Shown here: in pieces, positions 4,127 through 60,783 of the stretch
Layout: each line of letters starts with the position of its first letter
Numbering within the stretch: position 1 is the stretch's first letter
IMG/VR virus record: IMGVR_UViG_3300026488_000010
Length of the DNA: 64,000 bases
Strand: one strand, 5' to 3'
From: a virus
Made by a program: the position numbers and the translations under genes
Notes under the pieces: model-generated
What the model was told of the DNA's origin: nothing
Seen by the model: the letters and a program-made list of their open reading frames with translations, nothing else
Database searches by the model: none

Positions 4127-4276
4127 CTATCTTTAAAGATCGTTTCGAAGTTAGTATAGAAATTAATTTAATTTATTTCTATACTAACTAAAACGATCTT
4201 TAAAGATAGAAAAATATGCCAAGAAAACGATCTTTAAAGATAGAAATGTTTTTACCAAAACGATCTTTAAAGATAG
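4127..4276. repeat. Cluster of four C(G/T)ATCTTT-AAAGAT palindromes plus inverted AGTTAGTATAGAAAT/ATTTCTATACTAACT pair
   Basis: Copies at 4127-4145, 4190-4209, 4224-4243, 4257-4276, read directly. Confidence 0.9.
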
Positions 4277-4290
4277 AAATTACTTCTTGC

Positions 4291-4572
4291 TTAACTTCTT
4301 GATTGTTCTTGAGCTTTCTGTAACTCCGTTTTTACGACTCCACCTACATTTTGTTGTAAATGATTAGATAAGTGATTATGTGCCGAATTTGCAGACTCTT
4401 TTCTAAAGCCACTCATAGCGTTAAATGTTGTGTCTGCTGTTTCGTTATTATTATCTGAGCCTTGAAGGAACGCTGTTTTTTGTTGAGCCAATGGATCAGC
4501 ACTTTCAAAGAGACCCAAAATAGGTCCCTTATCTATTAAATATTTCATAATATAATCCTTATGCTTTAACAA
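4291..4572 (-). CDS. Hypothetical protein
   Basis: 93-aa ORF co-oriented and overlapping the upstream gene. Confidence 0.55.
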   Translation of the reverse strand: MLKHKDYIMKYLIDKGPILGLFESADPLAQQKTAFLQGSDNNNETADTTFNAMSGFRKESANSAHNHLSNHLQQNVGGVVKTELQKAQEQSRS

Positions 4573-5971: not shown

Positions 5972-6634
5972 TTATCTTCTATTGTTTTTGATAAAATTAA
6001 TACCTCTACTTTTAAGACCATTACCAACAAACTGTTTATTGTCTAGTTTTAAGGCTATTTCACCTGCCCCTAGTTTAGGAACAGTTCCCATTCTACTAGG
6101 ATTATATTGTTTAATTTTTCCAGCATTTCTTAACGCGACACCTAAACCAGACTTATCTTGATTTGGAGTATTCTTTTGAATTTCACTAAAGCTTCTTAAA
6201 TCCGAAGATTCATTAAAACCTGTCAATCCTGAAGCATGTTTTGCTTGGTTATTTTCAACAGTTCTTGGGCCTTCTTCTTTATTGGTAATACCTTCTTTTG
6301 CAAGTTTAGATTGTTTACCAAAAGATTTTTTAGATATACCCTTTGTTATAGAAGCAGACGCAGATGCAAAAGGTTCACCTTTTATATATGCGTCTCGTTT
6401 TCTTATTATTGATTCTTCAAAATTTTGAAATTGTTGTTCTTGATCTTTAATCTTTTCAACATTATCTGCACCTAGTTCATCTTTAGCTGCTTCCATTTTT
6501 TCTAATTCGACTTCTGTTTTCTGTTTACGATATTCACCGACATTTTTTAATTTGCCAAGTACTTGTTGAATATCTCCTCGGACAGCATCCATTATTTCAC
6601 TTTCGATAATATATTGTTTAATTTGTATCTTCAT
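5972..6634 (-). CDS. Lys-rich protein with IxE-type leader (putative internal head protein)
   Basis: Start reassigned to ATG 6634 (AGGAGG SD): MKIQIKQYIIESE. Confidence 0.65.
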   Translation of the reverse strand: MKIQIKQYIIESEIMDAVRGDIQQVLGKLKNVGEYRKQKTEVELEKMEAAKDELGADNVEKIKDQEQQFQNFEESIIRKRDAYIKGEPFASASASITKGISKKSFGKQSKLAKEGITNKEEGPRTVENNQAKHASGLTGFNESSDLRSFSEIQKNTPNQDKSGLGVALRNAGKIKQYNPSRMGTVPKLGAGEIALKLDNKQFVGNGLKSRGINFIKNNRR

Positions 6635-17909: not shown

Positions 17910-19448
17910 TTATTGTGATATTTTTACAAAACCGTTATCAATATATAATCGTCCAGGATTTGCAGGATCAGCAGTAGGTAAACTACTAAAATCAACATCT
18001 TGTAAATCTTGAGTAACCCAACTTACACCATCAAATATCAATGCGTGTCCGTACTGAGGAGAAGTTGTTAAATCAACATCGCCTAAATCACCAATTGATG
18101 TTGCATTGAATGCATCCATATCTTTAAAATTTGTATGTGTCCAATCTGCACCATCAAACATCATAAGATCACCTGTCTGTGGCGAATTAAGAGTTACATC
18201 ACCTAAATCACCAATTGATGTTGCATCCAACGCATTAAGGTCAGCGAACTTACCAACCTGCCAAGAACCTGCTCCATCATTCATTAATATATCACCTTGA
18301 TTACCAGATGGTAAACCTCCGGATCCAGCATTATCGATCTCTGATCTAATCTTATCAGATGACCATGTAGTTGTTGATGCTTGATTTAAATCATCTAATT
18401 GTGATTCTATTGCAATTGTTCTCTCTGATACAATCTTATCAGATGACCATGTAGTTGTTGATGCTTGATTTAAATCATCTATTGATACACCAACAGCATT
18501 ATCAATCTCTGATACAATCTTATCAGATGACCATGTAGTTGTTGATGCTTGATTTAAATCATCTATTGATACACCAACAACATTATCAATCTCTGATACA
18601 ATCTTATCAGATGACCATGTAGTTGTTGATGCTTGATTTAAATCATCCAATTGTGATTCTATTGCAATTGTTCTCTCTGATACAATCTTATCAGATGACC
18701 ATGTAGTTGTTGATGCTTGATTTAAATCATCTAATTGTGATTCTATTGCAATTGTTCTCTCTGATACAATCTTATCAGATGACCATGTAGTTGTTGATGC
18801 TTGATTTAAATCATCTATTGATACACCAACAGCATTATCAATCTCTGATACAATCTTATCAGATGACCATGTAGTTGTTGATGCTTGATTTAAATCATCT
18901 ATTGATACACCAACAACATTATCAATCTCTGATACAATCTTATCAGATGACCATGTAGTTGTTGATGCTTGATTTAAATCATCTATATCAGCACCAGAAC
19001 CCGACGGGTTCGCAACATTATTTGCAGCAATAGCATTGTTGATTGATGTTGATGTTTTTGATGAACTCCAAACAGAATTTGAATTAATAGCACCATCATT
19101 GATACTTGCACCCGGTTGAATATTATTCAACAGTGTTGTAACTTGTTGTGAACTAAAAACTTTTGTATTTGATATATTAAGATCATCTACTTCCGCAAAG
19201 TCCAGTGAGTTATTATATGTTGCAAATGAGTTATTTATATATCCAACAATTTTATTAGCTGACCACGTGTTAGGTCCTTGAATGTTATCATCCATATTTC
19301 CTAATAAATCATTCCATATAACTTGTCCATTTACAAGCCAACCATATTTTTCAGTATCTGTCGCAAATACCAATTCGCCTTGAACAGGTGGATTAAATGT
19401 AAAATAATCCTGTATTTCTCTTCGTAATAATATTCCAGTACTAGCCAT
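17910..19448 (-). CDS. Mtd_N-like fibre protein with 8 tandem 28-aa repeats
   Basis: GELVFATDTEKYGW; (I/L)DDLNQASTTTWSSDKI x8; C-terminal IGDLGDV repeats. Confidence 0.8.
   Translation of the reverse strand: MASTGILLRREIQDYFTFNPPVQGELVFATDTEKYGWLVNGQVIWNDLLGNMDDNIQGPNTWSANKIVGYINNSFATYNNSLDFAEVDDLNISNTKVFSSQQVTTLLNNIQPGASINDGAINSNSVWSSSKTSTSINNAIAANNVANPSGSGADIDDLNQASTTTWSSDKIVSEIDNVVGVSIDDLNQASTTTWSSDKIVSEIDNAVGVSIDDLNQASTTTWSSDKIVSERTIAIESQLDDLNQASTTTWSSDKIVSERTIAIESQLDDLNQASTTTWSSDKIVSEIDNVVGVSIDDLNQASTTTWSSDKIVSEIDNAVGVSIDDLNQASTTTWSSDKIVSERTIAIESQLDDLNQASTTTWSSDKIRSEIDNAGSGGLPSGNQGDILMNDGAGSWQVGKFADLNALDATSIGDLGDVTLNSPQTGDLMMFDGADWTHTNFKDMDAFNATSIGDLGDVDLTTSPQYGHALIFDGVSWVTQDLQDVDFSSLPTADPANPGRLYIDNGFVKISQ
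18340..18985. repeat. 84-bp coding tandem repeat, 8 copies, three variant types
   Basis: GACCATGTAG anchors at 18361, 18445, 18529, 18613, 18697, 18781, 18865, 18949. Confidence 0.95.
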
Positions 19449-19795
19449 TAGTAATCTCCATTTAATTCATCTAAATTATTTTGTATTTCACTATTATTTG
19501 AATCTATTTTTTTCTTAACTGATTGAGCAGCACCATATACACCAGCACCTGCAGTTCCAATCGCACCTGCAATAATTAAAGGTTTTAAAACAGATTCTTG
19601 TAAAATAGGTTTAGGTTTTATATCTTTTAACCCTTTTGTTATTCTACTTGAACCACCATATTGCACTTGAGCTGTAGAACCGGAGGCATTAGAAACACCG
19701 CCAATTCCTCCAGTGATACCTCCAGCACCTGAAAATGCACCATCCTCTAAAATTGTTTTTATCAATTGTTTATTTACTTTAAGTATCATTATCAA
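19448..19795 (-). CDS. Gly/Ala-rich small protein with ILE leader (putative internal protein)
   Basis: MILKVNKQLIKTILE-DGAFSGAGG; second ILQES site. Confidence 0.7.
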   Translation of the reverse strand: MIMILKVNKQLIKTILEDGAFSGAGGITGGIGGVSNASGSTAQVQYGGSSRITKGLKDIKPKPILQESVLKPLIIAGAIGTAGAGVYGAAQSVKKKIDSNNSEIQNNLDELNGDY

Positions 19796-21752: not shown

Positions 21753-22169
21753 TTATCCTTGTCTTTTAACTGATCTTAAATCTGTTCTAAACTTTGTCGG
21801 TAATTTTCCAGCACCTGCTAATCGTAATTTTGTTTGATCAATAGCATGTTTATCTGATTCTGTGTATCCAATTGGAATTGGAGAGTTAGTAATATTTGTA
21901 GCTTTAGATGCAAGATGTATCATATCTTTTTGAGCAGGACTAATAGGAGGAGCCATTTCTTCAATAGCTTTAATAAATGCTGTTTCTAGAATTATTCTAG
22001 TACTCTCCATTAAACCATTATCAATCAATATTTTACGAGCTTGCATAGTCGATTCATTGATCATCATTTTTAATTGTAATGTTTTAATTTCCGATAATGA
22101 GTCTGATTCTTCTAATACTCCGAGACTGTAACGATTTCTAATATTTTCTAAAATTAAATCTAATTTCAT
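21753..22169 (-). CDS. MKLDL-family putative prohead core/internal protein
   Basis: About 70-aa N-domain shared with 35618 and 36193 (MKLDL.LEN.RN.Y.LG.LEES). Confidence 0.75.
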   Translation of the reverse strand: MKLDLILENIRNRYSLGVLEESDSLSEIKTLQLKMMINESTMQARKILIDNGLMESTRIILETAFIKAIEEMAPPISPAQKDMIHLASKATNITNSPIPIGYTESDKHAIDQTKLRLAGAGKLPTKFRTDLRSVKRQG

Positions 22170-22413
22170 ATATCATCCTTTATTGTTGGAGCTAGAACGC
22201 TCCTTTAATTTTCTATTGTTTATTTGCTTGCATATTCGATTCATTGATCATCATTTTTAATTGTAATGTTTTAATTTCCGATAATGCGTCTGATTCTTCT
22301 AATACTCCGAGACTGTAACGATTTCTAATATTTTCTAAAATTAAATCTAATTTCATATATCATCCTTTATTGTTGGAGCTAGAACGCTCCTTTAATTTTC
22401 TATTGTTTATTTG
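22051..22413. repeat. 176-bp near-perfect tandem duplication (period 187 bp)
   Basis: 22051-22226 vs 22238-22413, one mismatch seen (GAGTCT/GCGTCT). Confidence 0.9.
22213..22356 (-). pseudogene. Truncated 47-aa duplicate of the MKLDL N-domain
   Basis: MKLDLILENIRNRYSLGVLEESDALSEIKTLQLKMMINESNMQANKQ*, carrying its own copied SD. Confidence 0.7.
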
Positions 22414-29545: not shown

Positions 29546-30285
29546 TATTTTTCTCCATTTTGTACTATATATTCTTTTAAATTATATTCTATTGAGTCAA
29601 AGTGATCTGCAATGAAATCACCTGACCAATCATGCACTATTTTTATCTTCGCGGATATTGTATCAGCAAATGGTCTAATTCCACCCAACATCGTAGCTGG
29701 AAATTCTAAGAATGCATAACTTGGCCCTTTATCTCCAATAACTGATTGTGACATTACAAGCTCTCCATCAATTCCAAATGATACAGGAGTATCAATCACA
29801 ACAATGTCTCGATACACTTCGAGTTCACCATTACTAGGATTATAATAATAAAATAATTCTAGTTCAAAATTTCCAGCCCAAACATCTTTCTTTACTGATG
29901 TTTGTGTTGGTTGAGGATCACTCATTGGATCAACTACCCCATTATACACTATTGTGAAATCAACATATACTTTAAAAGGTAATGATATAACACCTTCATT
30001 CAATACAGTATCTATAAGGTCCATAGGTATTGCATCAGTTATTCCAAACTTTGGATAAACATTATATCTAAATGATGAATATCTAACCATATCAGTTATA
30101 TCACTATCGATTGTTACAAATGATGTCGGGGCCTCTTTTAATTTCATAAATGTTAGAATACCTTTTGATAAATAACATATCTCTTCAGTATCTGTAGTAT
30201 ATGCTAATTCACCTTCTATTGGTGGATCTAGCTCAAGTTCAGCTTTAAGTTTTCGTCTTAAAATGATTCCAGAATCTGCCATCAT
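29545..30285 (-). CDS. Mtd_N-like domain protein
   Basis: SGIILRRKLKAEL..DPPIEGELAYTTDTEE. Confidence 0.75.
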   Translation of the reverse strand: MMADSGIILRRKLKAELELDPPIEGELAYTTDTEEICYLSKGILTFMKLKEAPTSFVTIDSDITDMVRYSSFRYNVYPKFGITDAIPMDLIDTVLNEGVISLPFKVYVDFTIVYNGVVDPMSDPQPTQTSVKKDVWAGNFELELFYYYNPSNGELEVYRDIVVIDTPVSFGIDGELVMSQSVIGDKGPSYAFLEFPATMLGGIRPFADTISAKIKIVHDWSGDFIADHFDSIEYNLKEYIVQNGEK

Positions 30286-30482
30286 TTACTCCTATTTGCA
30301 TCATGCATAATTGAGTGTAATGGTTTTTTTAATGGATCAAAGTCAACAGCTTCTTTGACATCATCTGCGTGTGAACCGATTGCTGCACCTACTGCTGCTG
30401 CACCCATCCCTGCTGCACCCATCCCTGCGAGAATCTTCATCTCTTCTATAATAAATGATTTATTTATTTTCATATTTTTCAT
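30282..30482 (-). CDS. Leader-bearing Gly/Ala-rich small protein
   Basis: MKINKSFIIEE-MKILAGMGAAGMGAAAVGAAIG. Confidence 0.7.
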   Translation of the reverse strand: MKNMKINKSFIIEEMKILAGMGAAGMGAAAVGAAIGSHADDVKEAVDFDPLKKPLHSIMHDANRSK

Positions 30483-30490
30483 ATTTTTCC

Positions 30491-30520
30491 TTTTCTATCT
30501 TTATCGATAAAGATCGTTTT
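30491..30520. repeat. Palindrome-family copy (mixed half-sites)
   Basis: TTTTCTATCTTTATCGATAAAGATCGTTTT. Confidence 0.9.
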
Positions 30521-30525
30521 GTAAT

Positions 30526-31242
30526 TTATAATACCCAAATCATTTGATCAGGTGGTGTTTTTCTTAAATCTTCTAATGTCTTCATTCGAAGTTCTTTTGC
30601 CTCTTGAATAAGCTCTTCAGCATTTAAATTTATTTCACCAAATGGTGTATTAAATCTATTAAACTTTTTTCTAATTTTACCAATAGCATTCATAATATAT
30701 GCGCATGCTAAGTCTCTAAAGAGATCATACATATCAGGATGAATTGATGTTGGATCAGAATGAACAACCTCTAATTCTAAAAGAAATTCATTATTTATAT
30801 AAGAGAATCCAGCCTTAGTTACTTCTATGATGTTTGGAGAAATAAATCTCATTGTATCTTCAGCTCTAACCATATTTGCCATATCTAAATAATTTTGACG
30901 AACTAGATAATCTGTAACATCACCAGTTACTGATTGACTAAACATGTGATCATAATCAACGTAATGTGCCTTATCAACTTTATTTAATATTTCCATAATT
31001 TTATAAGGAAAATTTGTGATCTCATACCTTAGTATCGGATCATCTGAAACAATGTGACCTTCTGTTACTTTGTACCATTTGTGTAAACCAGAGTACGCGC
31101 TAAATTCTGGTAGGACGTGCATTTGAATTTTTTCTATAATTTTTTGATCTGATATCTCTAGCGCCATTACATCGGCACCAAGCTCAGTTTTAATATGATC
31201 TAACACATTATCCCAGCTTTGCCAGCTATTACATTCAGTCAT
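30526..31242 (-). CDS. Neck/head-tail connector protein (T4 gp13-like)
   Basis: VLDHIKTELGA...; C-terminal IGKIRKKF...PFGEINLNAEELIQEAKE. Confidence 0.7.
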   Translation of the reverse strand: MTECNSWQSWDNVLDHIKTELGADVMALEISDQKIIEKIQMHVLPEFSAYSGLHKWYKVTEGHIVSDDPILRYEITNFPYKIMEILNKVDKAHYVDYDHMFSQSVTGDVTDYLVRQNYLDMANMVRAEDTMRFISPNIIEVTKAGFSYINNEFLLELEVVHSDPTSIHPDMYDLFRDLACAYIMNAIGKIRKKFNRFNTPFGEINLNAEELIQEAKELRMKTLEDLRKTPPDQMIWVL

Positions 31243-31323
31243 ATATTGCTCCTCGTATATCGCAGTATATACTATACGATATTTGTTTATTTTAATATTT
31301 GTTGTTTATGTTTGATTTCAACC

Positions 31324-31356
31324 ACAAGAAAGTATCTAGGCACATGCCTAGATACT
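31324..31356 (-). terminator. Hairpin + TTCTTGT terminator-like element
   Basis: Stem AGTATCTAGGCA/TGCCTAGATACT, then TTCTTGTGGTTGAA. Confidence 0.7.
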
Positions 31357-31594
31357 AATGCCCATAAGGACTTCGAGTGGAACGGCGAGTTCTATCATTT
31401 GAACGAATAGAACCGACGTTATTATTTAAAGGTTTTTGGCGGTCAGGTTGAGCACCAGCAGTTAATGCTGCTGCACCTCCAATCGCTAACCCACCTGCAC
31501 CTGCACCTGCAATAGCTGCTGTCTTACCATCAACATGATCAATCAACTCGTCAAAGAATTCTAAAATTAATCCTTTATTTATTTTTTCAATCAT
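31355..31594 (-). CDS. Leader-bearing Gly/Ala-rich small protein
   Basis: MIEKINKGLILE...AAIAGAGAGGLAIGGAAALTAG. Confidence 0.75.
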   Translation of the reverse strand: MIEKINKGLILEFFDELIDHVDGKTAAIAGAGAGGLAIGGAAALTAGAQPDRQKPLNNNVGSIRSNDRTRRSTRSPYGH

Positions 31595-32097
31595 TTTAAA
31601 GTGCTTCCCATTCGAGTACTAGGTGATAATACCGAACGAGTGCTGTCAAGCGCGCTTGTTTGTATATTAGCCATACCTTGATTCATTGGTCCAGCAACAA
31701 AAGGATTTAAATAATATTGACCGGGATTGTTCATCTTAACATCTTCGGTACCTTGAGCATATTCTTTTGAGCTTTCAGATGCTGAATCCATTTGAGCATT
31801 CCAAGGTTGACCATTTGGATCAACTTGTACTGTTGCTTCTGTTGGCAACTCTTTTGAATCTTTATGTTTTAATAATTCATAAGGGACTTGGTTATATACT
31901 TGGCCAAGTTTATTACCAATATGAGAGATTGGTCCACCAACCATAGGATTAAATATATACTGTCCAGGATTGCTATCAAGTGTTGCTGAGAGTGCTTGGT
32001 CTCTATTTACAAGAGCTTGTTGACGATTCTGCATAGATGTGTCCCATGCTCCATTAACTGCTTCTAAAATTAAACTCTTATTTATATCATATATCAT
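31591..32097 (-). CDS. Leader-bearing protein with internal NPGQY..NP.V.GP repeat
   Basis: Start reassigned to 32097: MIYDINKSLILE-AVNG. Confidence 0.75.
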   Translation of the reverse strand: MIYDINKSLILEAVNGAWDTSMQNRQQALVNRDQALSATLDSNPGQYIFNPMVGGPISHIGNKLGQVYNQVPYELLKHKDSKELPTEATVQVDPNGQPWNAQMDSASESSKEYAQGTEDVKMNNPGQYYLNPFVAGPMNQGMANIQTSALDSTRSVLSPSTRMGSTLK

Positions 32098-32098
32098 T

Positions 32099-32734
32099 TT
32101 ATTTCCCCTTTTTTGCTCGGACTTTTTTAGCAACATCTATTAATAATTTTGATGCTGAATTTCTTGTAGCTTTAACAGCTTTATCTTTTGCAGCTTTTGC
32201 AGCTTTGGTTGTTTTATCTACATATTTTTCACCATTCTTTGCTAAGTGTAATCCACCAGCAATAGTTGTGGCACTGACAGCTAATGTTTTTGCAGCTGTT
32301 GTTAAACCAGATTCATCTTCATCATCAGAATTGATTTCATCTAAATCTGTCGATTCCCCAAAATAACCTTTAACTGTATCAACTGTATCATTAATTGATT
32401 GAACAGTGTTTCCTAAACCATGACCAACATCATATGCTGCTCTTGGTACTAGTGCAATATTTGGATCAGTCTCAGCATTATATGCTGCCTTGACCGAGTC
32501 CATTGCCGTTCTCGCACCTGCTCCATAATCAACACCTCGTAAATTCGATGTACCAACTCCTGTTAACACCGCAGCATTATTAATAGAACTATTTACAGCT
32601 GATCCAAGATTACCATTATTCGCAGCATATGCTCCAATTCCTGCTAAAGATGCGCCTGCTACATATTTACCTTTATTACCATTAAGATGATTTAACAATC
32701 CTTCTTGTAATAAATAAATCATTTTTTGTTTCAT
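32099..32734 (-). CDS. Leader-bearing Gly/Ala-rich protein
   Basis: MKQKMIYLLQE-GLLNHL..NKGKYVAGASLAGIGAYAA. Confidence 0.75.
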   Translation of the reverse strand: MKQKMIYLLQEGLLNHLNGNKGKYVAGASLAGIGAYAANNGNLGSAVNSSINNAAVLTGVGTSNLRGVDYGAGARTAMDSVKAAYNAETDPNIALVPRAAYDVGHGLGNTVQSINDTVDTVKGYFGESTDLDEINSDDEDESGLTTAAKTLAVSATTIAGGLHLAKNGEKYVDKTTKAAKAAKDKAVKATRNSASKLLIDVAKKVRAKKGK

Positions 32735-32742
32735 TTTAATTC

Positions 32743-33255
32743 CTAAAATTTATTTTTTATATAATCAGTGTATGGTGTAACATGTGCAGCTAAGTTATCA
32801 TAAGCTAAACCTGCAGATACAATTGGATGTCTAACTGTAAAGTTTGTTTGATCTGGTTCTTGATCCATTGATGTTACTTTTTTAATAACATTTGATGCTG
32901 TGTCTTGTGCATGTGATAAAGCGTTTTCTTTTTGTATCGAGTGCTGATAATCATAAGTGTCGCCATTATGATCCCAATTTGATATTAAGTTATCAGGTTT
33001 AGAAAAAACTTCATTCGCTGCTTGTAACTTTGCTGTTATTGCATTAGCAGTTGATGCATTATGTAAATCGGCTGATGCTTCACCTGCAAAATCTTGAACT
33101 GCATCTTGTGCTTCAACACCTAATAAACCTTTACCTGCTGCGTATGTTCCAGCAGTTCCAGCAGCCGCTAAACCAGCAACATACTTACCATAATTGTTTT
33201 TTAGGTGATCAACAATCCCCTCTTCTATAATATGATTTTTAATATCAATTATCAT
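32743..33255 (-). CDS. Leader-bearing Gly/Ala-rich protein
   Basis: MIIDIKNHIIEE-GIVDHLKNNYGKYVAGLAAAGTAG. Confidence 0.75.
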   Translation of the reverse strand: MIIDIKNHIIEEGIVDHLKNNYGKYVAGLAAAGTAGTYAAGKGLLGVEAQDAVQDFAGEASADLHNASTANAITAKLQAANEVFSKPDNLISNWDHNGDTYDYQHSIQKENALSHAQDTASNVIKKVTSMDQEPDQTNFTVRHPIVSAGLAYDNLAAHVTPYTDYIKNKF

Positions 33256-33641
33256 TTTATTTCCTTATTATGTTTTCTATAGTAATTATTTGCACCTGCT
33301 CTAAATGCTGGAGCTGCTAATAATCCACCTAATGATGCGCCAATCGCGCCTGAAGCTGCTGGAACTACAAAATTATTATTTAGAGTATCAAATGAATCAT
33401 CACCGATATCAATATCATCATATTGTGATTTAACAATACCTAACCCAGTACCTACGGCAGCACCTATAGCAGCTGGAGCGGTACTCGCAGTTAAACCTGC
33501 AACATAAGTATTATTTGCTAAACCCAATGCTGTCATATTTTCTTTATCTCTTTTCGCCTCATAACTTTTATGTTTATCACGAATTCTATCTTTAATGATC
33601 GTTGCAAACTCTTCTATGATTTCAAATTTATTTAATTTCAT
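33252..33641 (-). CDS. Leader-bearing glycine-zipper protein
   Basis: Start reassigned to 33641: MKLNKFEIIEE; AAIGAAVGTGLG and GAIGASLGGLL segments. Confidence 0.75.
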   Translation of the reverse strand: MKLNKFEIIEEFATIIKDRIRDKHKSYEAKRDKENMTALGLANNTYVAGLTASTAPAAIGAAVGTGLGIVKSQYDDIDIGDDSFDTLNNNFVVPAASGAIGASLGGLLAAPAFRAGANNYYRKHNKEIK

Positions 33642-33642
33642 A

Positions 33643-34212
33643 TTATGCTCCATAACTTTTCATAAATTCTAATGTATCTGAATCTTTTATAGTATTACTT
33701 AAATTATCATGAGTTGTATCATGTGCTGTTGATTGTGCTGTTGATTGTGCTGTTGACTGAGATGTTGAATATGCTGGTGTATTTGCATCATCATTCGTTT
33801 TTCTACTAAAATCTGGTATCTTTTCTTTTAACTCATTAAAAACTTTTATTACTGTTGATTGATCTTCTGGACCTTGTATATCTTTTAAATGATCATTTTC
33901 AACAGCTGATGAGTTAGAATCTAGAGGTGAATCTTTTGTTTCACCTAATGTTTTAATACCATCACCATTAGCATCTGTACCATATGTTGAATTAAGTTTT
34001 ATCATTGAATCTTTTGACCAATCACCTGCTTTTTCAACGAAACCTTTTAAAGCTGAACCACCTCTATCAACAGCATCCTTAGCTGTTGGGCCAAAAGCAT
34101 TAGCATGTGCCAATGCTATACCACCTGCAGCCATTAAACCTTTTCCCCAATTATCTTTCACACTTTGTAAAACACCTTCTTGAATAAGGTGTGCTTTTAT
34201 ATCTATTATCAT
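33643..34212 (-). CDS. Leader-bearing Gly/Ala-rich protein
   Basis: MIIDIKAHLIQE-GVLQSVKDNWGKGLMAAGG. Confidence 0.75.
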   Translation of the reverse strand: MIIDIKAHLIQEGVLQSVKDNWGKGLMAAGGIALAHANAFGPTAKDAVDRGGSALKGFVEKAGDWSKDSMIKLNSTYGTDANGDGIKTLGETKDSPLDSNSSAVENDHLKDIQGPEDQSTVIKVFNELKEKIPDFSRKTNDDANTPAYSTSQSTAQSTAQSTAHDTTHDNLSNTIKDSDTLEFMKSYGA

Positions 34213-34311
34213 ATTGGTTTCCTCAAAATTTCTTATATAAATATCCTAAAATTCCTATATAAGAATTTCTATTAATTTGTTAGTATCCGGAGATACTAAC
34301 ATACTAACATA

Positions 34312-34848
34312 CTACCCTCTCATTCGTTGACCGAACTCAGTACCTTTTCTGATACCATACTCCGCCGCATTGTTAAGATTATTTAGACGAACAGCAGCCG
34401 CCCCTTTTCTTAACATAGAATCATCTTGAGATGTTGTATTGTATCCATGCTTAGCAAGACGTTGTTTAATCGGATTGATACTTGAACCATGCAATAATCT
34501 TTTTGCTGCGAATGATTGCCCAATCGTTCCAAGACCGGCCCCAATTGCTGCACCTGTCATATCATATTCATCATCATTAACTTCTTGATCAATATCATCT
34601 TGTTTCATTACCGCTTTATCAGCATATGAAAGATCACCATCACCATGTACAGAATTACCTGCTGCACCTCCAACTAACATACCGGCAGTTGGAGCCATAG
34701 ATGCAGCAGCCGCATTATTAAATGTTTTTGATGCTGAACTATGGTTTAATGCTCTAGTTGAACGTCTTGCAAATTTTTCAGCTTTTTCTGGAGAATCTAT
34801 TCTAAATGCTTCTTCTAAAAGAGCGCTTTTATCTATTGTATATATCAT
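34312..34848 (-). CDS. Leader-bearing glycine-zipper protein
   Basis: MIYTIDKSALLEE; GMLVGGAAG and GAAIGAGLGTIG. Confidence 0.75.
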   Translation of the reverse strand: MIYTIDKSALLEEAFRIDSPEKAEKFARRSTRALNHSSASKTFNNAAAASMAPTAGMLVGGAAGNSVHGDGDLSYADKAVMKQDDIDQEVNDDEYDMTGAAIGAGLGTIGQSFAAKRLLHGSSINPIKQRLAKHGYNTTSQDDSMLRKGAAAVRLNNLNNAAEYGIRKGTEFGQRMRG

Positions 34849-34888
34849 TTTATTTCCTATTTGATTATTTAATTATATGAATTTTAGC

Positions 34889-34921
34889 ACAAGAATAATC
34901 ATAGAGATAAACTCCATGATT
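34889..34921 (-). terminator. Hairpin + TTCTTGT terminator-like element
   Basis: Minus-strand stem AATCATGGAG/CTCTATGATT (one G-U pair), then TTCTTGTGCTAAA. Confidence 0.6.
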
Positions 34922-34948
34922 AAATTATGTGTAATTATGCGTAATTAT

Positions 34949-35608
34949 CTATCTACTTCTACCAAGATTTCCATAACCCGTAGGTCTAGAAACATTATTT
35001 GAAGGATGTGATAAATTTTGTTTGAATGCGGATCCACCACTTTTCAGAGCAGAGCCAAAATTCTTAACACCGTGACCAGTTGCAGCAACGCCACTTTTAG
35101 CAGCACCATATGCAGCATGTGCACCTTGTTTTACTTGAGAAGCTGTTTTACCAACACCATTTCCTGCAACATGTGCAGCAATACCCCCAGCAGCAGCTAA
35201 TCCAAGCCCACCTAAGATACCAATACCTGAATCATCATCAGCTGCATCATCAATAGGTGCAGCTGCGTCAACTGACGCATGCTGAGCATCATGTTCAACC
35301 TTTTGACGAACATCAGATACTGGAGCAGATTCTTTAGCTTGAAACATTTTGTCTCCACCATAGAAATGACCAGCAGCCGTTGCTTCGTTTCCGATTTTAG
35401 AACCAGCAGCTGAAGCAGCTCCTCGAACAGCATCGTAACTTCCATCAACAGCATTCTTAACACCTGAACCAAATGTTCCAGCATGTGCTAATCCAAGTCC
35501 AGCGCCAACAGCACCGACTTTCATACCATTTCTTGCCATCTGAGACATCTCTTCTTCTAATAGAGAAAGAGATTCTAAGATGATACTTTTATTTACATCA
35601 AAAATCAT
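34949..35608 (-). CDS. Leader-bearing Gly/Ala-rich protein
   Basis: MIFDVNKSIILE-SLSLLEEE...GAVGAGLGLAHAGTFG. Confidence 0.75.
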   Translation of the reverse strand: MIFDVNKSIILESLSLLEEEMSQMARNGMKVGAVGAGLGLAHAGTFGSGVKNAVDGSYDAVRGAASAAGSKIGNEATAAGHFYGGDKMFQAKESAPVSDVRQKVEHDAQHASVDAAAPIDDAADDDSGIGILGGLGLAAAGGIAAHVAGNGVGKTASQVKQGAHAAYGAAKSGVAATGHGVKNFGSALKSGGSAFKQNLSHPSNNVSRPTGYGNLGRSR

Positions 35609-35617
35609 ATTTGATCC

Positions 35618-36193
35618 TTAACGTGTTTGAGATTGAGGTCGAATAGGTGCACGATTTCTAAATTGTTGCATTCTACGTTTCAAAGTTTGTCCAGCAGCAG
35701 GAATTGCACGTTGTGCAATCATACCTGCTCCAACACCACCTGCTAGTGCACCTGCTCCAATAGCAGCAGCAGTTCCTGGATTGGCACCAATAACATTCCC
35801 AATAGAAGCAGTTTGACCCAAATTAAGCTCAGGATTGTAACCTTGAGAATATCCTTGCTGCATTGAGCTATTAATAACTTCGCCTGTATCATCATAATCC
35901 AAATCCATTGAACCATCTTCCATGTCGCCTGTTGCTAAACCAGCAACGCCTGCAACACCATGAGCAAGACCTTGAGCGCCACCAGCAACGTGATCAGCCC
36001 AAGATTCTTGTAAAAGATTTTGAACAGCTACGATTGTACCTTCTTCAACTAACATTTTACGAATTTGCATAATACTTTCATTGATAAGGATTTTACCTTG
36101 TAAAACAGTCTTTTCATCAAGACCATCGGACTCCTCTAAGAGTCCAAGATTGTATTGATTACGAGTGTTTTCTAATACTAAATCTAATTTCAT
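35618..36193 (-). CDS. MKLDL-family protein with Gly/Ala-rich C-terminus
   Basis: N-domain shared with 21753 and 36193. Confidence 0.8.
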   Translation of the reverse strand: MKLDLVLENTRNQYNLGLLEESDGLDEKTVLQGKILINESIMQIRKMLVEEGTIVAVQNLLQESWADHVAGGAQGLAHGVAGVAGLATGDMEDGSMDLDYDDTGEVINSSMQQGYSQGYNPELNLGQTASIGNVIGANPGTAAAIGAGALAGGVGAGMIAQRAIPAAGQTLKRRMQQFRNRAPIRPQSQTR

Positions 36194-36834
36194 TAGTCAT
36201 CTCCTAGTGCTGCAGCGGCAGCTCCACCAGCAGCTAATAGTGCGGCGGCAGCTCCACCTTTCTTAAGAAGAGATTTATCTTTCTTAGAACCAGTTGTTGC
36301 AGGTGTTTTATTACCAGCTTTTACAGGTGCTCCAGCTTTAGGTTCTGTTTTAGCAGAAGCCTTGTCATGTTTCTTTTGAGAAACTAATGCTTTTGATGCT
36401 TTAGACTTTTCTTTCTTAGCAACATTAGCAACCACAACTGCATGTTTCTTAGCTTTAACTTGGTCATCACGCTTTGCAATTTGCTTTTGAGCATTTTGTT
36501 TAGCAGCAACAGCCTTCTCAGCATCTTCTGCTTTCTTAGTACGCATTGCTTTTGCTTCTGCTTTCTTAGCAGCTTTCTCAGCGTTACGTTTAACTGTACG
36601 ATCAAAATTTGACTCTTCAATAACAGCATATGTCCATGCTTCTTCTAAAACTTGTTGAACAGCACTCATAGTACCTTCTTCAACTAACATTTTACGAATT
36701 TGCATAGTTGATTCGTTGATAAGAATCTTACCACGAAGCAACTCTGTTTCTGACATATTTTCTGATTCTTCAAGAAGTCCAAGATTGTAGCGATTACGAG
36801 TGTTTTCTAATACTAAATCTAACTTCATAATCAA
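36193..36834 (-). CDS. MKLDL-family protein with histone-H1-like Lys/Ala-rich C-terminus
   Basis: Shared N-domain; AEKAAKKAEAKA...GAAAALLAAGGAAAAALG. Confidence 0.8.
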   Translation of the reverse strand: MIMKLDLVLENTRNRYNLGLLEESENMSETELLRGKILINESTMQIRKMLVEEGTMSAVQQVLEEAWTYAVIEESNFDRTVKRNAEKAAKKAEAKAMRTKKAEDAEKAVAAKQNAQKQIAKRDDQVKAKKHAVVVANVAKKEKSKASKALVSQKKHDKASAKTEPKAGAPVKAGNKTPATTGSKKDKSLLKKGGAAAALLAAGGAAAAALGDD

Positions 36835-36838
36835 ATCC

Positions 36839-37423
36839 TTATTTTAGGTTTGCAAGGATTCTCGCAACCACATTTTCAGATTCTTCAAGAATTTCAGACT
36901 CTTCTTCGATTACAGTACTTTCTTCAACGATTGCACCTTCTTCAGACTCTTCAGACTCTTCAGACTCTTCACTTTCTTCAACGATTTCACCTTCTTCACT
37001 TTCTTCAACGATTTCACCTTCAGCTTCTTCAGACTCAGCCATTGGTTGAGGCTCTTCTGCCATTGGAGCATCTACAGGAAGTTCACCATGATCTTCTTCA
37101 GCATCAGCCATACCATCTTGATCACCATCTACTGGAATAAGTTGACCATCTTGGAATACATACTTGTTACCAACAGCATCGAATAATTCAATTGGTGATT
37201 CAGGAGCCATTTCTTCAGGAGCATCTGGTACTTCAATTGTATCAGGAATAAAATCCTCAGCAGCTTCAGTGATAATGTCAGCACATAAATTGTGATAAAA
37301 CTCAGACTCTTCTAATGTAACTGAACCTTTTTCAGCGATGTGGTTAAGAACCATAGCATTACCCATGTTCGTACTTGTTTCTTCTAAAACACTTGCTAGT
37401 GTTTGTGCAAAATATTCATTCAT
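36839..37423 (-). CDS. Highly acidic putative prohead scaffold/core protein
   Basis: Repeated IVEES/ESEE/ILEES motifs resembling multiple prohead-protease sites. Confidence 0.65.
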   Translation of the reverse strand: MNEYFAQTLASVLEETSTNMGNAMVLNHIAEKGSVTLEESEFYHNLCADIITEAAEDFIPDTIEVPDAPEEMAPESPIELFDAVGNKYVFQDGQLIPVDGDQDGMADAEEDHGELPVDAPMAEEPQPMAESEEAEGEIVEESEEGEIVEESEESEESEESEEGAIVEESTVIEEESEILEESENVVARILANLK

Positions 37424-37538
37424 ATTTTTACCTTTGTTTTAATTTTTTAATTTTGTGAATTGTTCTTGATTTGTGATTTTCTTAATTATTTGTTACCTAA
37501 GTGTTTTATTTATACCTAATTGTAAATAATTATAACAT

Positions 37539-39009: not shown

Positions 39010-39039
39010 AAAACGATCTTTATCGATAAAGATCGTTTT
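39010..39039. repeat. Perfect 30-bp palindrome at the end of the RNAP gene
   Basis: AAAACGATCTTTATCGATAAAGATCGTTTT. Confidence 0.95.
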
Positions 39040-42000
39040 TATATATCAGATATTAAACCTGCGCCTTTAAAATATGTCTTAACCATATCTAAAGATGTTA
39101 AATCAGCTTTATCTATTTCGACATCCAATTCATCTGGGATTTCATTGGTTCTTAAAATAGTGTTTAACATTTGTCTCTTTGCTTTACCGGCATCTGATTT
39201 CATCGCGTGCATCTCTTTAATAAGATTATATGGTCTTTTAGATAATAATGAATTAATATCATATAAACCAATTTTAGTTGCACCTGTTCCATCTTTAGTT
39301 CCTGAACGTCCTTGACCAGTAATCCAATTTTTACCTGTTGCTAATGAACCACGTGTACTAGACATTGCTTGTGGAAAATGTTCCAACATATTGATTGGGA
39401 GAATCCCAACGGGAACTGATCTTTGAGTAACAATACCATTATTTTCAACAATTTTAACTTTTTCGTTTAAAGGTATACCCAACACATCTGCTGCTTTTTG
39501 TATATCAGCCATTTTAATTTGATTCTTAAATGGTGGAACAATTGCTGGAAATGCTGGATTATTTAAAGCATCTGAATTATTAATAATTTTAATAATTTCA
39601 GCATTTGGCTTCTTAAAAAATTCATCTAATTGATTAATGATCATATGATCATCAGTTGCGTCTAGATTTGCAAAAACCTCTTTAACTATTTTCTTTATAC
39701 CTAACACTTTTTTAGATTTTGCTAAATCCATAACTGCTAAGTTCAAAAAGTATATAACTTTTCCTAAGTACATTGATAATAAAATTGATGGATTCTTTCT
39801 AGAAATAATTGATAATGGTGTACCAATAAATTCAATTTTTAAACCAGTTTCTTCTGCTATTGGTTCTTGACCATGTTTCATAATATATTGAACTGTACCT
39901 TTACCACCAGAACTGGTTAGAGTAAATTTTGAACCATTAATTACAGGGTTATGTCTTTCAATATAAACCTCAATAACAGCACCTTCAAATTCTTCACCAT
40001 TGAGTTTATGTCCACCAATTGTTAACGTTTCTACATTTTCTAAATGTCCAATACAATCAGCAGCACCTAAACCTTTAGTATCTTCTTCAATACCTTTAAA
40101 TTGTTTTAAACATGCATCTTGTTTATTTTGAATCTCTTCAGTTACTTTTTTATGTAAAGATAAAATTTGTTTATTTATTTTACGAGTATTTAATTTAACA
40201 ACAACTTCTTTAATAACACCACCAGGTGATAAATATGATTTAGTTAAACCATCAACAACTAATCCGATCATTAGAGAATCATCTTCTTCATTGTCAGAAT
40301 CATCTATAAATGTTTCCGATGTATTAAATTTAATTAACACATCTCCAGCGTTCGTTTTTGAACCTTGATTAAGATTAATATCTTTTAACATTGCATTATC
40401 TGGAAATTTAATAGTTATTTTTTGCAAAATTTTGTTTGAATATTTTGTATCTAATGTATCAGATACAACCCAACCATCTTCATAATTCATTCCCATATAA
40501 CCCATTTCAGCAACTACTAGGTTTTTACCGATAGCGAGCTTCTGATGCTTCAAAGAATCAGTTACTGCTATCATTTGACCTTCTTCAATCTTTTGTCCTT
40601 TGTTTATAAGAACGTTGTAATTAGTTGCTATGTATATACCGCGCTTAGTACGCGATTTAACTGGCTTTATAGAGAAGGTTTCTGTTTCACCGTCATTGTA
40701 TTTGACTTTAACAATTTCATCTGTTACAGCGCTTATAACACCTGCTTTACGAGCCTTCTTCACAAATCTATCAGAAACTAAATGTGGAACATATGCTTCA
40801 AACCCTGTCTGAACCAATGCAACATCAGGTTTCTCAAGTTGTATAAACTGAGCTGTTTGTTGATTACCCATTACTCTACGAGTAGTGTCATCATATTCAA
40901 AGAATGGTGATAATGATTCAACAGGACTCAGATTCTCAAAAGGATTAGAATCGTTAGAGAAAGGCTTCTTAGAAATGTTTCCAAATCTATCATCAATCAT
41001 TGCACCGTTAGTAAGCGTTTGATTAATACCAATACCACCATACTCATTAGTTGCGGTTGGAGCCATTACACCAAAATATGATGGATTTAAATCTCTACGA
41101 TTAAGAGTTACTTGTGATTTAAGAGTATTACCAATACCCGTCTTAGTAACTTTTAAACTTAGCATCATCTCTTCTAAAGGGTTTAGTGTTTTAGTATATT
41201 GTAATATACCAGCATCTAAAAGATTTTTAATAATAAAATCATTTTGCATATATATTTTTTCATTTGATAAATGCTTTCTTGTTTTAAATTTAGAAATTGC
41301 TTGATGCATCTGATTATATGCAACTGATGTGATTGTCTCAGACATTCTCAATCTATAATTATCTAAATCATATTGTGATTTAGCTGATCGAGTACCTAGT
41401 AGTTCTACCATTTCGTTTGAGAATATTCCAGCTAGATCAGTACTTTGACCAGCATCTTGAAGTATTTTTTTAGTCGAACCATCAATAAATTTATACTCTA
41501 TATCATATAAATTCTTTGCAAATCTTGCACCTTGTTTATGTTCGATAATATCTAACATTGTTTGAGCCAATGCTTCAATTGTTGGCTCAAAATCTCTATC
41601 TTTTATTTTATAAGTGTTAAGACCATTTGCATAATTCCATTGCTCTGTTGTGTTTGGGTACAAACATAAATATTGTCTCTCATCATTATGTTTAAAATTC
41701 ATTACAATTCCAGCTTCATTATCTTTACGATCCTTAAACTGATATTTTAAATTCATTATAGAAAACGCTTTCTTAGAAGTACTTCTATTGATTAATAAAA
41801 ATACAGATAATGGAACATTCTTTCCCATAATTCGCATTTCATAAAATGGTTTTGAACTCTTTGATTTTTTTAATACATCATCACCTGATAATTTATTGTT
41901 TATCTTATTATAAATATTAAATACAAAATCATTTAATAAATTTTTTGAAATATGATTTATATCAGAATCTTCTGTTTTATAGAAGATGTCATTTGAACCC

Positions 42001-42149: not shown

Positions 42150-42211
42150 AAATATTCCCTTTAATTTTTATTTTTCAGCATATTGCGACAGTGTTTCAGA
42201 TATGATTCAGT

Positions 42212-43804: not shown

Positions 43805-43813
43805 TATAATTCC

Positions 43814-43857
43814 TTTAGTATATCTTTAGTATATCTTTAGTATATCTTTAGTATATC
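43814..43857. repeat. 11-bp tandem repeat TTTAGTATATC x4
   Basis: Read directly in the 5' UTR of 43804. Confidence 0.9.
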
Positions 43858-43920
43858 TTATTAAGTATTTGTTTACTTAACACTTTTAGTTCATTGTGTT
43901 TTTTATGTCTGAAATCAAGC

Positions 43921-46681: not shown

Positions 46682-46861
46682 TTTTCTATCTTAAAGGATA
46701 GAAAAAATAAGAATCAAGGAAAACGATCTTTAAAGATCGTTTTATAAATTGTCTATAAAAATGACTTTATAAAACGATCTTTAAAGATCGTTTTAGTTAG
46801 CATAGAAATTAATTTAATTTATTTCTATGCTAACTATTTTTCTATCTTAAAAGATCGTTTT
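46682..46861. repeat. Cluster of four palindrome-family copies plus inverted AGTTAGCATAGAAAT/ATTTCTATGCTAACT pair
   Basis: Copies at 46682, 46720, 46771, 46838; architecture mirrors 4127-4276. Confidence 0.9.
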
Positions 46862-59486: not shown

Positions 59487-59723
59487 TTATAATTTATAAC
59501 CCATTTTCTTTAAAAAAATGTCCGATGTTCTTTCATGAGAAGCTTTGAGATCATTACCTGACCCTCGAACCTTAGTAACCGTAAACGGTTTATTTGATTC
59601 ATTTGGTTTAGTGAACTTCTTTTCATGATAAGCTTTTAAAGCATCCATACGTCTCTGAACAATTGCTGGATCAGCATTATATGTTGCTTCTAAGATTTCT
59701 GCTTTATCTAATGTAATAATCAT
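59487..59723 (-). CDS. Leader-bearing small basic protein
   Basis: MIITLDKAEILE-ATYN. Confidence 0.7.
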   Translation of the reverse strand: MIITLDKAEILEATYNADPAIVQRRMDALKAYHEKKFTKPNESNKPFTVTKVRGSGNDLKASHERTSDIFLKKMGYKL

Positions 59724-60417: not shown

Positions 60418-60783
60418 TTAAATCTTTTTAGTTGCTGATTTTAAAGCTGCTGCTGATAGACCCATCTTTTGAATAAATCCTCTTCTTGATACATTTTTGG
60501 TCTCATCATTATTTGATGTTGTATGTTTGTATATTTTTGAAGCAGTGATGCCTGATGCAACTTTTTTCTTAGCATGTTTATAATCACTGACTATTGATCC
60601 AGGATTTTGCAGCTTACCAATAACACTTGTTGCACCTGCAGTAGCAGCAGCGGTTAGTCCCATTAATCCTAAGAAGTTTCGTCTAGAAACATCTTCTTCC
60701 AATAAATAAAATATCTCATTTTCTAAAAAATATTGTACATTATTTTCTTCTAAATATTCTATACCTTGTTGTATTGTATACAT
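60418..60783 (-). CDS. Leader-bearing protein with two twin-arginine (Tat)-like motifs
   Basis: LLEE-DVSRRNFLGLMGLTAAATAGA and NVSRRGFIQKMGLSAAAL. Confidence 0.75.
   Translation of the reverse strand: MYTIQQGIEYLEENNVQYFLENEIFYLLEEDVSRRNFLGLMGLTAAATAGATSVIGKLQNPGSIVSDYKHAKKKVASGITASKIYKHTTSNNDETKNVSRRGFIQKMGLSAAALKSATKKI

Follow-up and report, generated by a model that had tools for sequence, protein, structure and literature searches.

The stretch of DNA analysed here, a 64-kb window of sequence from an uncultured giant phage of a hydrothermal vent, encodes about 18 small, otherwise fast-changing proteins whose ORF translations begin with a common 10-12-residue N-terminal tag. Leaders ending in (I/L)-x-E occur on 12 of the 13 minus-strand genes at 30282-37423 and on 5-7 genes elsewhere in the window. 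A preliminary description had noted the 12 array genes and their one exception, a gp13-like gene; ORF calls confirm both, the exception being a leaderless 238-aa gene at 30526-31242. That description recognized one leader type, but three classes can be distinguished: class 1, a 10-12-residue tag with the consensus M-(K/I)-(Y/I/V)-x-(I/L)-(N/D)-K-x-L-I-L-E (nine array genes); class 2, a conserved helical N-domain of about 70 residues with five near-invariant Glu sites (two array genes and gene 21753); and class 3, a single acidic protein. Its list of outlying members (5972, 19448, 21753, 59487 and 60418) holds except for 60418, a weak member, and had missed 4291-4548 and the leader-only ORF at 22213-22356. 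Array and surroundings read as follows:

37487..37494, minus strand: AACAAATA motif, 64 nt upstream of the first array gene
36839..37423, minus strand: class-3 gene, 194 residues, acidic (pI 4.1), first gene of the array
36193..36828, minus strand: class-2 gene; helical N-domain of about 70 residues, Lys/Ala-rich basic tail, Gly/Ala-rich C-terminus
35618..36193, minus strand: class-2 gene; N-domain 71% identical to that of gene 36193 over 52 residues
34949..35608, minus strand: class-1 gene, 219 residues; 12-residue tag ending I-L-E; two Gly/Ala-rich segments; paralogue of gene 33643
34896..34922, minus strand: terminator-like hairpin within the array, after gene 34949
34312..34848, minus strand: class-1 gene, 178 residues; tag ending L-L-E-E; orphan payload
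33643..34212, minus strand: class-1 gene, 189 residues; tag ending I-Q-E; paralogue family
33252..33641, minus strand: class-1 gene, 129 residues from the ATG at 33641; tag ending I-I-E-E
32743..33255, minus strand: class-1 gene, 170 residues; tag ending I-I-E-E; paralogue family
32099..32734, minus strand: class-1 gene, 211 residues; 11-residue tag ending L-Q-E; paralogue family
31591..32097, minus strand: class-1 gene, 168 residues from the ATG at 32097; tag ending I-L-E; without a Gly/Ala segment
31355..31594, minus strand: class-1 gene, 79 residues; tag ending I-L-E; Gly/Ala-rich core; terminator-like hairpin after it
31331..31356, minus strand: terminator-like hairpin closing the array, just before two AACAAATA copies that precede the adaptor gene
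30526..31242, minus strand: neck or head-tail-adaptor-like virion protein, 238 residues, no leader (phrog_18911, 2e-22; phrog_211, 3.8e-7)
30282..30482, minus strand: class-1 gene, 63-66 residues; tag ending I-I-E-E
22213..22356, minus strand: 47-residue ORF, class-2 N-domain only, from a 187-bp tandem duplication (22039-22413)
21753..22169, minus strand: class-2 gene outside the array, amid fibre genes
19448..19789, minus strand: class-1 variant, 113 residues, between fibre genes; 15-residue tag ending I-L-E; Gly-rich payload
5972..6634, minus strand: class-1 gene, 220 residues, near the terminase gene
4291..4548, minus strand: 85-residue gene adjoining the terminase gene; 15-residue tag ending L-F-E
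59487..59723, minus strand: class-1 tag on a 78-residue basic protein, outside the morphogenesis region
60418..60783, minus strand: doubtful member; N-terminus ending Y-L-E-E, without the tag's N/D-K core

Terminase, neck and fibre genes and a virion-type RNA polymerase (RNAP) lie near the array; about ten fibre genes of the window carry a common N-terminal module. Besides the array, the AACAAATA motif, a candidate late-type promoter, occurs at the adaptor gene (31280, 31296), at the RNAP gene (43866) and at one fibre gene (11410). Of 11 copies on the coding strand, nine fall between genes (P=6e-7).

Behind the class-1 tags, the proposed paralogy of 32099, 32743, 33643 and 34949 was borne out, with the likeness limited to the first ~55 residues; BLAST alone detected only the pair 33643 and 34949 in this group. 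Gene 33643 displays the features of the family, an N-W-G-K motif with a Gly/Ala segment behind it, and the payload of gene 30282 is hardly more than a single Gly/Ala zipper. The payloads are orphans with low-confidence predicted folds (pLDDT 0.50 for the Atlas model of 33643; pLDDT 41 for AF2 on the paralogue-family alignment with 32743), and no homology to T4 internal proteins, gp22, gp67 or gp68, or to phiKZ PF12699 proteins was found.

The class-2 N-domain is conserved. In gene 36193 it contains five conserved hydrophobic-x-Glu sites, and AF2 predicts helices at residues 2-24 and 27-158 (pLDDT 82-91 over residues 1-50). Throughout the family (170 clusters) the domain invariably starts at residue 1, and E8, E20, E21, E27 and E39 are conserved at 99-100% among 124 representatives. 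Its payloads vary: that of gene 35618 is Gly/Ala-rich and unrelated to that of 36193. In 30 of 150 class-2 representatives, the start of a class-1 paralogue-family payload stands directly behind the class-2 N-domain, at an E|G junction, and the same cargo therefore occurs with either leader. The class-3 protein, whose 15-residue N-terminus ends V-L-E-E, contains [IL]xE nine times and closes with a repeat tail rich in Glu and Ser. It is kept in all relatives (L002-L020; 36-57% identity), gave no Pfam or PHROG match and no similarity to T4 gp67, and is a candidate prohead core or scaffold component. The earlier picture of a library of peptides overlooks these conserved proteins: class-2 and class-3 members look more like scaffold or core components to be diced than effectors.

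A Shine-Dalgarno sequence (AGGA/GGAG-type) lies 6-9 nt upstream of every leader ATG in the window, and two genes start at internal ATGs right after an upstream stop (32097 in gene 31591; 33641 in gene 33252). In the window the leader regex matched 11 of 83 N-termini versus 2 of 370 internal Met positions (P=2.5e-7), and in the relative G001 12 of 212 versus 4 of 1118 (P=2e-7): the tag is restricted to N-termini. Its conservation ends sharply at the Glu. Across 47 distinct leaders, positions P3-P1 carry 2.5-3.9 bits of information, a measure partly circular where the regex fixes the residue, and those past the Glu 0.3-1.0 bits; P3 is I or L in 45 of the 47, and the tag is conserved across all 12 positions, beyond P3-P1 alone. 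We give almost no credence to the idea that the similarity lies at the nucleotide level, for instance in a translation-initiation region or a recombination site copied along with each gene, and that the peptide itself has no function. The 187-bp duplication did copy a Shine-Dalgarno sequence plus leader; however, leader codons differ synonymously between paralogues and in relatives, upstream regions have only the generic Shine-Dalgarno in common, and amino-acid conservation persists where the relatives' adaptor protein is only 42-43% identical.

Using the adaptor gene at 30526-31242 as anchor (homologues 43-92% identical), we fetched related metagenomic phages, and the tag is present in every one while the payloads behind it turn over. 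All longer relatives fetched (L001, L002, L004, which is the G001 contig, L005, L006, L017 and L020) carry a tagged array in one and the same position, bounded by the RNAP-beta/346-aa genes on one side and the adaptor gene on the other. Identity across relatives is 36-75% for flanking genes, the class-2 N-domain and class 3; past the nearest relative, most class-1 payloads and class-2 tails can no longer be detected. Outside the array, the tag of gene 5972 is kept in orthologues of G001, L005, L006 and L010, and orthologues of 4291 in G001, L017 and L020 bear the canonical tag.

The window does not extend to the phage's own protease and capsid genes, so the link to a protease rests on relatives. 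G001, a close relative (181-kb IMG/VR contig) syntenic with the window, encodes a head maturation protease (phrog_207, 2.7e-22) which is 28% identical to RB16/RB43 gp21, aligns with T4 gp21 in its His and Ser motif blocks, and in tblastn is closer to T4 gp21 than to the phiKZ/SPN3US proteases. The adjoining gp23-like capsid protein starts I-L-E-N, the same motif as the tags, and this start, together with an (L/I)(L/I)-E-E site near residue 70, is conserved in 115 homologues. A second tagged lineage, G005, also encodes the protease (51% identity).

The earlier suggestion of a cleavable capsid-targeting leader thus gains comparative support from a relative's gp21-type protease, the capsid motif, conservation of the tag as against the payloads, and the virion-gene setting; the leaders probably act as T4-like capsid-targeting propeptides that the head protease cuts off. 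Counting against this reading are the lack of detectable homology to the T4 and phiKZ proteins named above, the undepleted [IL]xE sites of the payloads (detailed below) and the position of gene 59487 among non-structural genes; no orthologue of that gene was found in G001. We consider it unlikely that the leader is instead a docking or oligomerisation helix retained on the mature protein, with a virion or cellular partner and no proteolysis. Conservation at all 12 positions fits such a helix, as does the reuse of a common N-module by about ten fibre genes of the same genome, and [IL]xE sites in the payloads are not depleted beyond composition-based expectation and thus bear no signature of selection against internal cutting. 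However, the tag always ends in Glu with I/L at P3, the gp21-type rule, the relatives' capsid protein and protease bear the same N-terminal motif, and conservation stops abruptly at the Glu, where payload modules are swapped.

The capsid motif also speaks against the tag being a recognition sequence for a modifying enzyme, for example a radical-SAM maturase in a RiPP-like system. The lineage does encode many radical-SAM proteins, among them nine with CxxxCxxC at 104-117 kb of G001, but even the closest tagged gene there (123747-124256) is 6 kb or more away from this cluster, the array is 18 kb or more away, and no radical-SAM-like protein was found in the 64-kb window. With one Cys in 2002 residues of the array, and a tag of just 10-12 residues on payloads of 50-200 residues, we regard such modification as highly improbable.

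The payloads had been described as mostly Gly/Ala-rich hydrophobic helices, which holds for most array members by a loose measure but for a minority in a strict charge-free 16-mer test (clade-wide, 20 of 57 class-1 and 9 of 19 class-2 proteins, about 35-47%). Hydrophobicity of the segments is marginal (Kyte-Doolittle 19-mer maxima of 0.9-1.75), and they scored below threshold against glycine-zipper Pfam families. Charge-free Gly/Ala-rich segments are found exclusively in leader-bearing proteins, one point in favour of the injection and membrane activity which the payloads may have. The same confinement would suit small membrane proteins destined for the infected cell, with roles such as superinfection exclusion, control of lysis or envelope remodelling, with the segment as anchor and the tag as a cytoplasmic regulatory or degradation signal, and large phages encode many small membrane proteins. 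The modest share of positive proteins and the marginal hydrophobicity argue against this, as do the position of the genes inside the virion block, behind a AACAAATA motif common to virion genes, and the soluble, helical or acidic nature of class-2 and class-3 members; we think it quite improbable.

Under T4-style capsid targeting, the tagged genes would be expressed together with virion genes, and the 10-12-residue tag would dock each precursor on the assembling prohead core. The gp21-family prohead protease would then cut (I/L)-x-E sites behind the Glu and trim the gp23-like capsid protein. It would also dice the acidic class-3 protein and the class-2 N-domain, whose five conserved sites follow one another at intervals of ~10-12 residues; both may act as core or scaffold parts or long propeptides. 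Mature payloads would remain in the head with the DNA, probably beside the virion RNA polymerase that neighbouring genes encode, and exit with the DNA at infection.

Among known systems, the inner-body and ejection proteins of phiKZ and SPN3US (PF12699; proteases gp175/gp245) likewise belong to giant phages with a virion RNAP and form expanded head-protein paralogue families whose N-terminal parts are removed by protease. Their multi-site diced propeptides resemble the class-2 N-domain, and SPN3US gp47 has a transmembrane segment exposed after cleavage. However, those propeptides mostly exceed 100 residues, whereas most tags here have 10-12; their proteases cut at S/A/G-x-E or A-x-E, whereas P3 here is mostly I/L; and no PF12699 match was found. 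Of the two parallels drawn earlier, T4 and phiKZ gp175, the relevant one is T4, with (L/I)-x-E and a 10-residue CTS that is cleaved once (10.1101/2021.01.19.427310, PMC5694885).

In T-even phages internal proteins are diverse and the CTS alone is conserved (PMC3012670), and a polymorphic internal-protein locus has been described (Repoila et al. 1994, as cited in PMC3012670). Here, too, relatives differ in genes at one spot with only the targeting leader conserved; unlike that locus, the one here comprises 9-13 arrayed genes, with more members scattered through the morphogenesis region, and belongs to an uncultured, deep-branching lineage. T4 IPI, IPII, IPIII and Alt bear a ~10-residue N-terminal tag ending (L/I)-x-E on otherwise unrelated proteins, and gp21, gp22, gp24 and Alt (NC_000866) all begin with 9-10 residues ending in this way. 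Also as in T4, the lineage has a gp21-family protease, a gp23-like capsid protein with an N-terminal propeptide, and fast-diverging payloads. Unlike in T4, tag and payloads here have no sequence homology to T4 proteins, and many payloads have Gly/Ala-rich hydrophobic segments whereas those of T4 are small, basic and DNA-binding; the phage also has a phiKZ-type multisubunit RNAP. Judging from sequence, the proteins are most likely loaded into the head as T4 internal proteins are, and the set, with ~18 tagged genes per genome versus ~4 in T4, would therefore represent a known system in a new and large form.

The window is AT-rich (GC ~31%) and nearly all of its genes lie on the minus strand. The array at 30282-37423 comprises 13 minus-strand genes, named here by their left coordinates, and 12 of them are small genes which start with a leader ending in (I/L)-x-E: 11 lie between the RNA polymerase (RNAP)-proximal genes and the leaderless adaptor gene, and one lies beyond the adaptor gene.

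Landmarks of the window.
2073-4085: large terminase gene
Long run within the window: fibre genes
30526-31242: neck or adaptor-like virion gene (the adaptor gene)
39039-43804: multisubunit RNAP beta subunit, split, with ~25% identity to the subunits of phiR1-37 and further giant phages
In the window: eight tRNAs

A megablast search with the whole region returned no match to cultured phages at the DNA level. Only one sequencing run, a hydrothermal vent metagenome which is possibly the source itself, contains the stretch, and no RNA run is listed for it. One relative, G001, is a 181-kb IMG/VR contig syntenic with the window over ~50 kb, and its entire length was read. A 303-aa protein encoded at 53292-54203 matches phage partition proteins (phrog_691, 2.3e-33), is 74% identical to its G001 counterpart and has an N-terminus which looks actin/ParM-like by eye.

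The preliminary description had reported the shared leader on the 12 array genes, and statistical analysis bears this out: the tag pattern is found at 11 of 83 N-termini in the window vs 2 of 370 internal Met positions (P=2.5e-7), and a relative behaves similarly. A Shine-Dalgarno sequence precedes every leader ATG. With the leaders lined up at the Glu, positions P3-P1 carry 2.5-3.9 bits of information and those beyond the Glu 0.3-1.0 bits, a drop which is partly fixed by the regex used to collect them. P1 is E in 47/47 leaders, as the selecting regex requires, and P3 is I or L in 45/47; the preferences for K at P6 (43/47), N at P7 and Y at P10 are well in excess of anything the regex imposes. 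Identical tag residues are encoded by differing codons in different genes, and a DNA-level element as the origin of the leader similarity is less consistent with the evidence as a whole. Sec/Tat signal peptides, defined by a basic n-region, an h-region of at least 7 residues and a small-x-small site, were also considered and rejected: the tag has 10-12 residues, no h-region and a Glu at its end.

The leaders fall into three classes. Class 1, present in nine array genes and in 4291, 5972, 19448 and 59487, is a tag of 10-15 residues with the consensus M-(K/I)-(Y/I/V)-x-(I/L)-(N/D)-K-x-L-I-L-E. Class 2 (35618, 36193, 21753 and a 47-aa duplicate at 22213) is a conserved N-domain of ~70 residues in which Glu 8, 20, 21, 27 and 39 are 99-100% conserved across 124 family representatives, each with a hydrophobic residue two positions ahead of it. 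AlphaFold2 models this domain as helices (pLDDT 82-91). It does not resemble a concatenation of class-1-like tags, as no segment scored above the 99th background percentile with a PSSM. Class 3 consists of 36839-37423 only, whose product is acidic (pI 4.1), contains nine [IL]xE sites and opens with a 15-residue segment ending V-L-E-E. The 47-aa ORF of class 2 lies in a 187-bp tandem duplication (22039-22413; 2.0 copies, 98% identical), which carries over the Shine-Dalgarno sequence together with about the first 40 codons of the class-2 gene, and it encodes the N-domain only.

Metagenomic homologues of the adaptor protein are 43-92% identical to it, and 18 relative loci were fetched via this protein. 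All sufficiently long loci have a run of tagged small genes between the RNAP/346-aa genes and the adaptor gene, with further tagged genes downstream. The flanking genes, the class-2 N-domain and class 3 keep 36-75% identity across relatives. The class-1 payloads (the parts behind the tag) and class-2 tails are mostly undetectable past the nearest relative, where they are 54-84% identical vs 91% for the adaptor. Scanning IMG/VR with the back-translated tag returned 60 stretches, mostly chance matches; true tags were present only in G001 and about 8 contigs from a few samples. Searches of 50,697 cultured-phage records with 35618 and 32743 (tblastn) gave no match.

Payload BLAST detected no mutual similarity except between 33643 and 34949 and within the class-2 trio, and scanning the array members against PHROG and Pfam returned nothing significant. 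Judged by sequence, one leader is common to otherwise unrelated proteins of one phage. The genes 32099, 32743, 33643 and, more loosely, 34949 form a paralogue family, with a short amphipathic stretch, an N-(W/Y)-G-K motif and a Gly/Ala-rich segment directly behind the tag. The start of this payload is also found directly behind the class-2 N-domain in 30 of 150 class-2 family representatives, with the junction falling between E and G; one cargo can thus be found behind both kinds of leader, and the join coincides with the predicted cut. The ESM Atlas had no usable look-alike for 33643 (model pLDDT 0.50), and AlphaFold2 reached a pLDDT of 41 on the class-1 paralogue family.

The payloads had been described as mostly Gly/Ala-rich hydrophobic helices, which is correct in part. 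Charge-free Gly/Ala-rich 16-mers are present in 20/57 class-1 and 9/19 class-2 proteins, a minority in each class, and their hydrophobicity is only marginal. What stands is their association with the tag: the 16-mers occur in 9/227 other small proteins, all nine of which are tagged proteins missed by the regex, and the Gly/Ala-rich segment is therefore exclusive to tagged proteins in these genomes. Provided that the tag functions as it does in T4, this exclusivity would point to a class of ejection proteins directed at membranes, which is open to testing. Small-xxx-small repeats are seen in the array payloads by eye and by count; glycine-zipper Pfam domains (PF13488 and relatives) were rejected, the best being PF13488 at 11.4 bits vs a cut-off of 25. 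Insertion of the payloads into membranes after ejection is plausible by analogy, with precedents in SPN3US gp47 and phiKZ lipid-associated injected cargo. The predicted mature part of 30282 has 53 residues. The tagged proteins could instead be membrane proteins serving the infected cell, a reading which is less consistent with where else the tag motif occurs (see below). Residues ~75-190 of 36193-36828 form a histone-H1-like, Lys/Ala-rich basic tail behind the class-2 N-domain, and this protein is possibly a DNA-condensing internal protein.

We consider it probable that the leaders are T4-type capsid-targeting propeptides cut by a gp21-type prohead protease. G001 encodes a head maturation protease (L031:6419-7213; phrog_207, 2.7e-22) which shares 28% identity with gp21 of RB16 and RB43 and aligns with T4 gp21 over the conserved His and Ser motif blocks. 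G005, a second tag-bearing lineage, has a version of this protease (51% identity) whose own N-terminus includes I-L-E-E. Pfam S77 and S80 scores were under the cut-off, and PF03420 alone did not detect the G001 protease. The G001 protease is adjoined by a 539-aa capsid protein, some homologues of which contain a Pfam Gp23 domain. The capsid N-terminus is highly conserved (115 homologues) and has a short opening segment which closes with I-L-E-N, as the tags do; near residue 70, the position at which T4 gp23 is cut, the homologues also have an (L/I)(L/I)-E-E site with a small residue behind it. In the T4 record, gp21, gp22, gp24 and Alt all open with 9-10 residues ending (L/I)-x-E. In G001 and G005, a gp21-family (S77) prohead protease occurs together with the tag, and the link to the window's phage is made through these relatives. 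The propeptide reading is weakened by the absence of [IL]xE depletion in the payloads: class-1 payloads contain 57 such sites vs 49.9 +/- 6.4 when shuffled, with no depletion beyond composition, and class-2 tails contain 5 vs 5.5. G001 also has two large HNH/homing endonuclease genes (L031:2967-4604 and L033:4321-6027), one directly downstream of the capsid gene and the other beside a tagged 169-aa gene.

Two rival readings of the leader, a docking helix kept on the mature protein and a RiPP-like enzyme tag, are less consistent with the evidence. The latter gains from the many radical-SAM genes in the lineage, nine proteins with radical-SAM-type CxxxCxxC motifs being clustered at 104-117 kb of G001 (L032), but the window has no CxxxCxxC protein and the radical-SAM genes are not near the array. 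Cys occurs once in the 2002 array residues vs 0.57% in the window's proteins, and candidate RiPP-like precursors were rejected for having neither an adjacent modifying enzyme nor a modifiable Cys core. All four rivals (docking helix, enzyme tag, membrane proteins of the infected cell and DNA-level element) are a poorer fit than the propeptide reading to the Glu-anchored boundary, to the presence of the motif on both capsid protein and protease, and to the cargo exchange at the junction.

The motif AACAAATA has 11 coding-strand copies, 9/11 of which are intergenic (P=6e-7). Where the downstream gene falls inside the window, the intergenic copies lie 24-64 nt upstream of starts, often directly behind a hairpin, which makes AACAAATA a candidate phage promoter.

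Copies of AACAAATA ahead of genes.
37487, minus strand: ahead of the array
31280 and 31296, minus strand: ahead of the adaptor gene
43866, minus strand: ahead of the RNAP gene
11410, minus strand: ahead of a fibre gene
50158 and 63071, minus strand: upstream of gene starts

Hairpins follow genes 34949 and 31355, and together with the placement of AACAAATA this is indirect evidence which fits co-expression of the array with virion genes. At 43813-43859, after AACAAATA and ahead of the RNAP beta N-terminal gene start, stand 4.3 exact copies of an 11-bp unit. Palindromic repeat units of ~24 bp with the core AAAACGATCTTTAAAGATCGTTTT occupy 4190-4280, within the long spacer lying upstream of the terminase gene, and recur at 46720-46795; these look like operator or iteron sites.

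New here are the scale of the system (~18 tagged genes), a lineage in which a T4-type head is paired with a phiKZ-type RNAP and of which no member is cultured, the class with a conserved multi-site N-domain, and the exclusive tie between Gly/Ala-rich segments and the tag. Should the tag act as it does in T4, capsid targeting coupled to a protease would be no T-even peculiarity: it would be an old and general means of loading cargo into T4-type heads, enlarged to ~18 genes in this lineage and joined to a virion RNA polymerase. Sequence alone would then mark the proteins that are probably first into the host, making the tagged set candidates for entry, early-compartment or counter-defence roles, and the tag could be used for finding injected proteins in metagenomes and for packaging in engineered phages. 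A far more speculative picture, which we regard as rather unlikely in its entirety, is of a vent giant-phage lineage with a T4-type head and phiKZ-type virion RNAP, in which one 12-residue tag loads ~20 changeable proteins and the tag boundary is the recombination joint for cargo. Many of these proteins would be glycine-zipper peptides, unmasked by the protease, that insert into host membranes on injection, either building or reshaping a DNA-entry conduit or an early membrane compartment like the phiKZ EPI vesicle, or disabling envelope-based defences.

By homology, the tagged proteins stand apart from known head systems. PHROG and Pfam scans detected no homology in the array to T4 IPI, IPII, IPIII, Alt, gp22, gp67 or gp68. 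Direct comparisons of class 2 and class 3 with T4 gp68 and gp22 were likewise rejected (hhalign probability <2%; the resemblance to gp68 is limited to a non-significant 8-residue motif), as was a relationship to T4 gp67 (BLASTP E=29). Ten tagged proteins (nine of the array and 19448) had no match to PF12699, the phiKZ-like internal head proteins, even at E<=5. The proteases of giant phages share the cut after Glu, but at A/S/G-x-E and for the most part on propeptides of >100 residues (PMC5694885 among the sources). The preliminary description had invoked phiKZ gp175-type cleavage at S/A/G-x-E as a precedent, which does not carry over: the phiKZ-like internal head proteins are cleaved at that motif, whereas the tags here have I/L at P3 and come without PF12699. 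By these sequence comparisons, the tagged proteins belong to no T4 or phiKZ internal-protein family. The closer likeness is to the T4 capsid-targeting sequence (CTS), which brings internal proteins, and foreign ones too, into the prohead and is cut off a single time by gp21 (PMC5694885, 10.1101/2021.01.19.427310), and which is the only conserved part of the diverse T-even internal proteins (PMC3012670). Proteins of this functional class are recognised by an N-terminal leader of ~10-20 residues ending (L/I)-x-E, the tags here have 10-15 residues and the same kind of ending, and the tag system would by analogy work like the CTS and internal proteins of T4.
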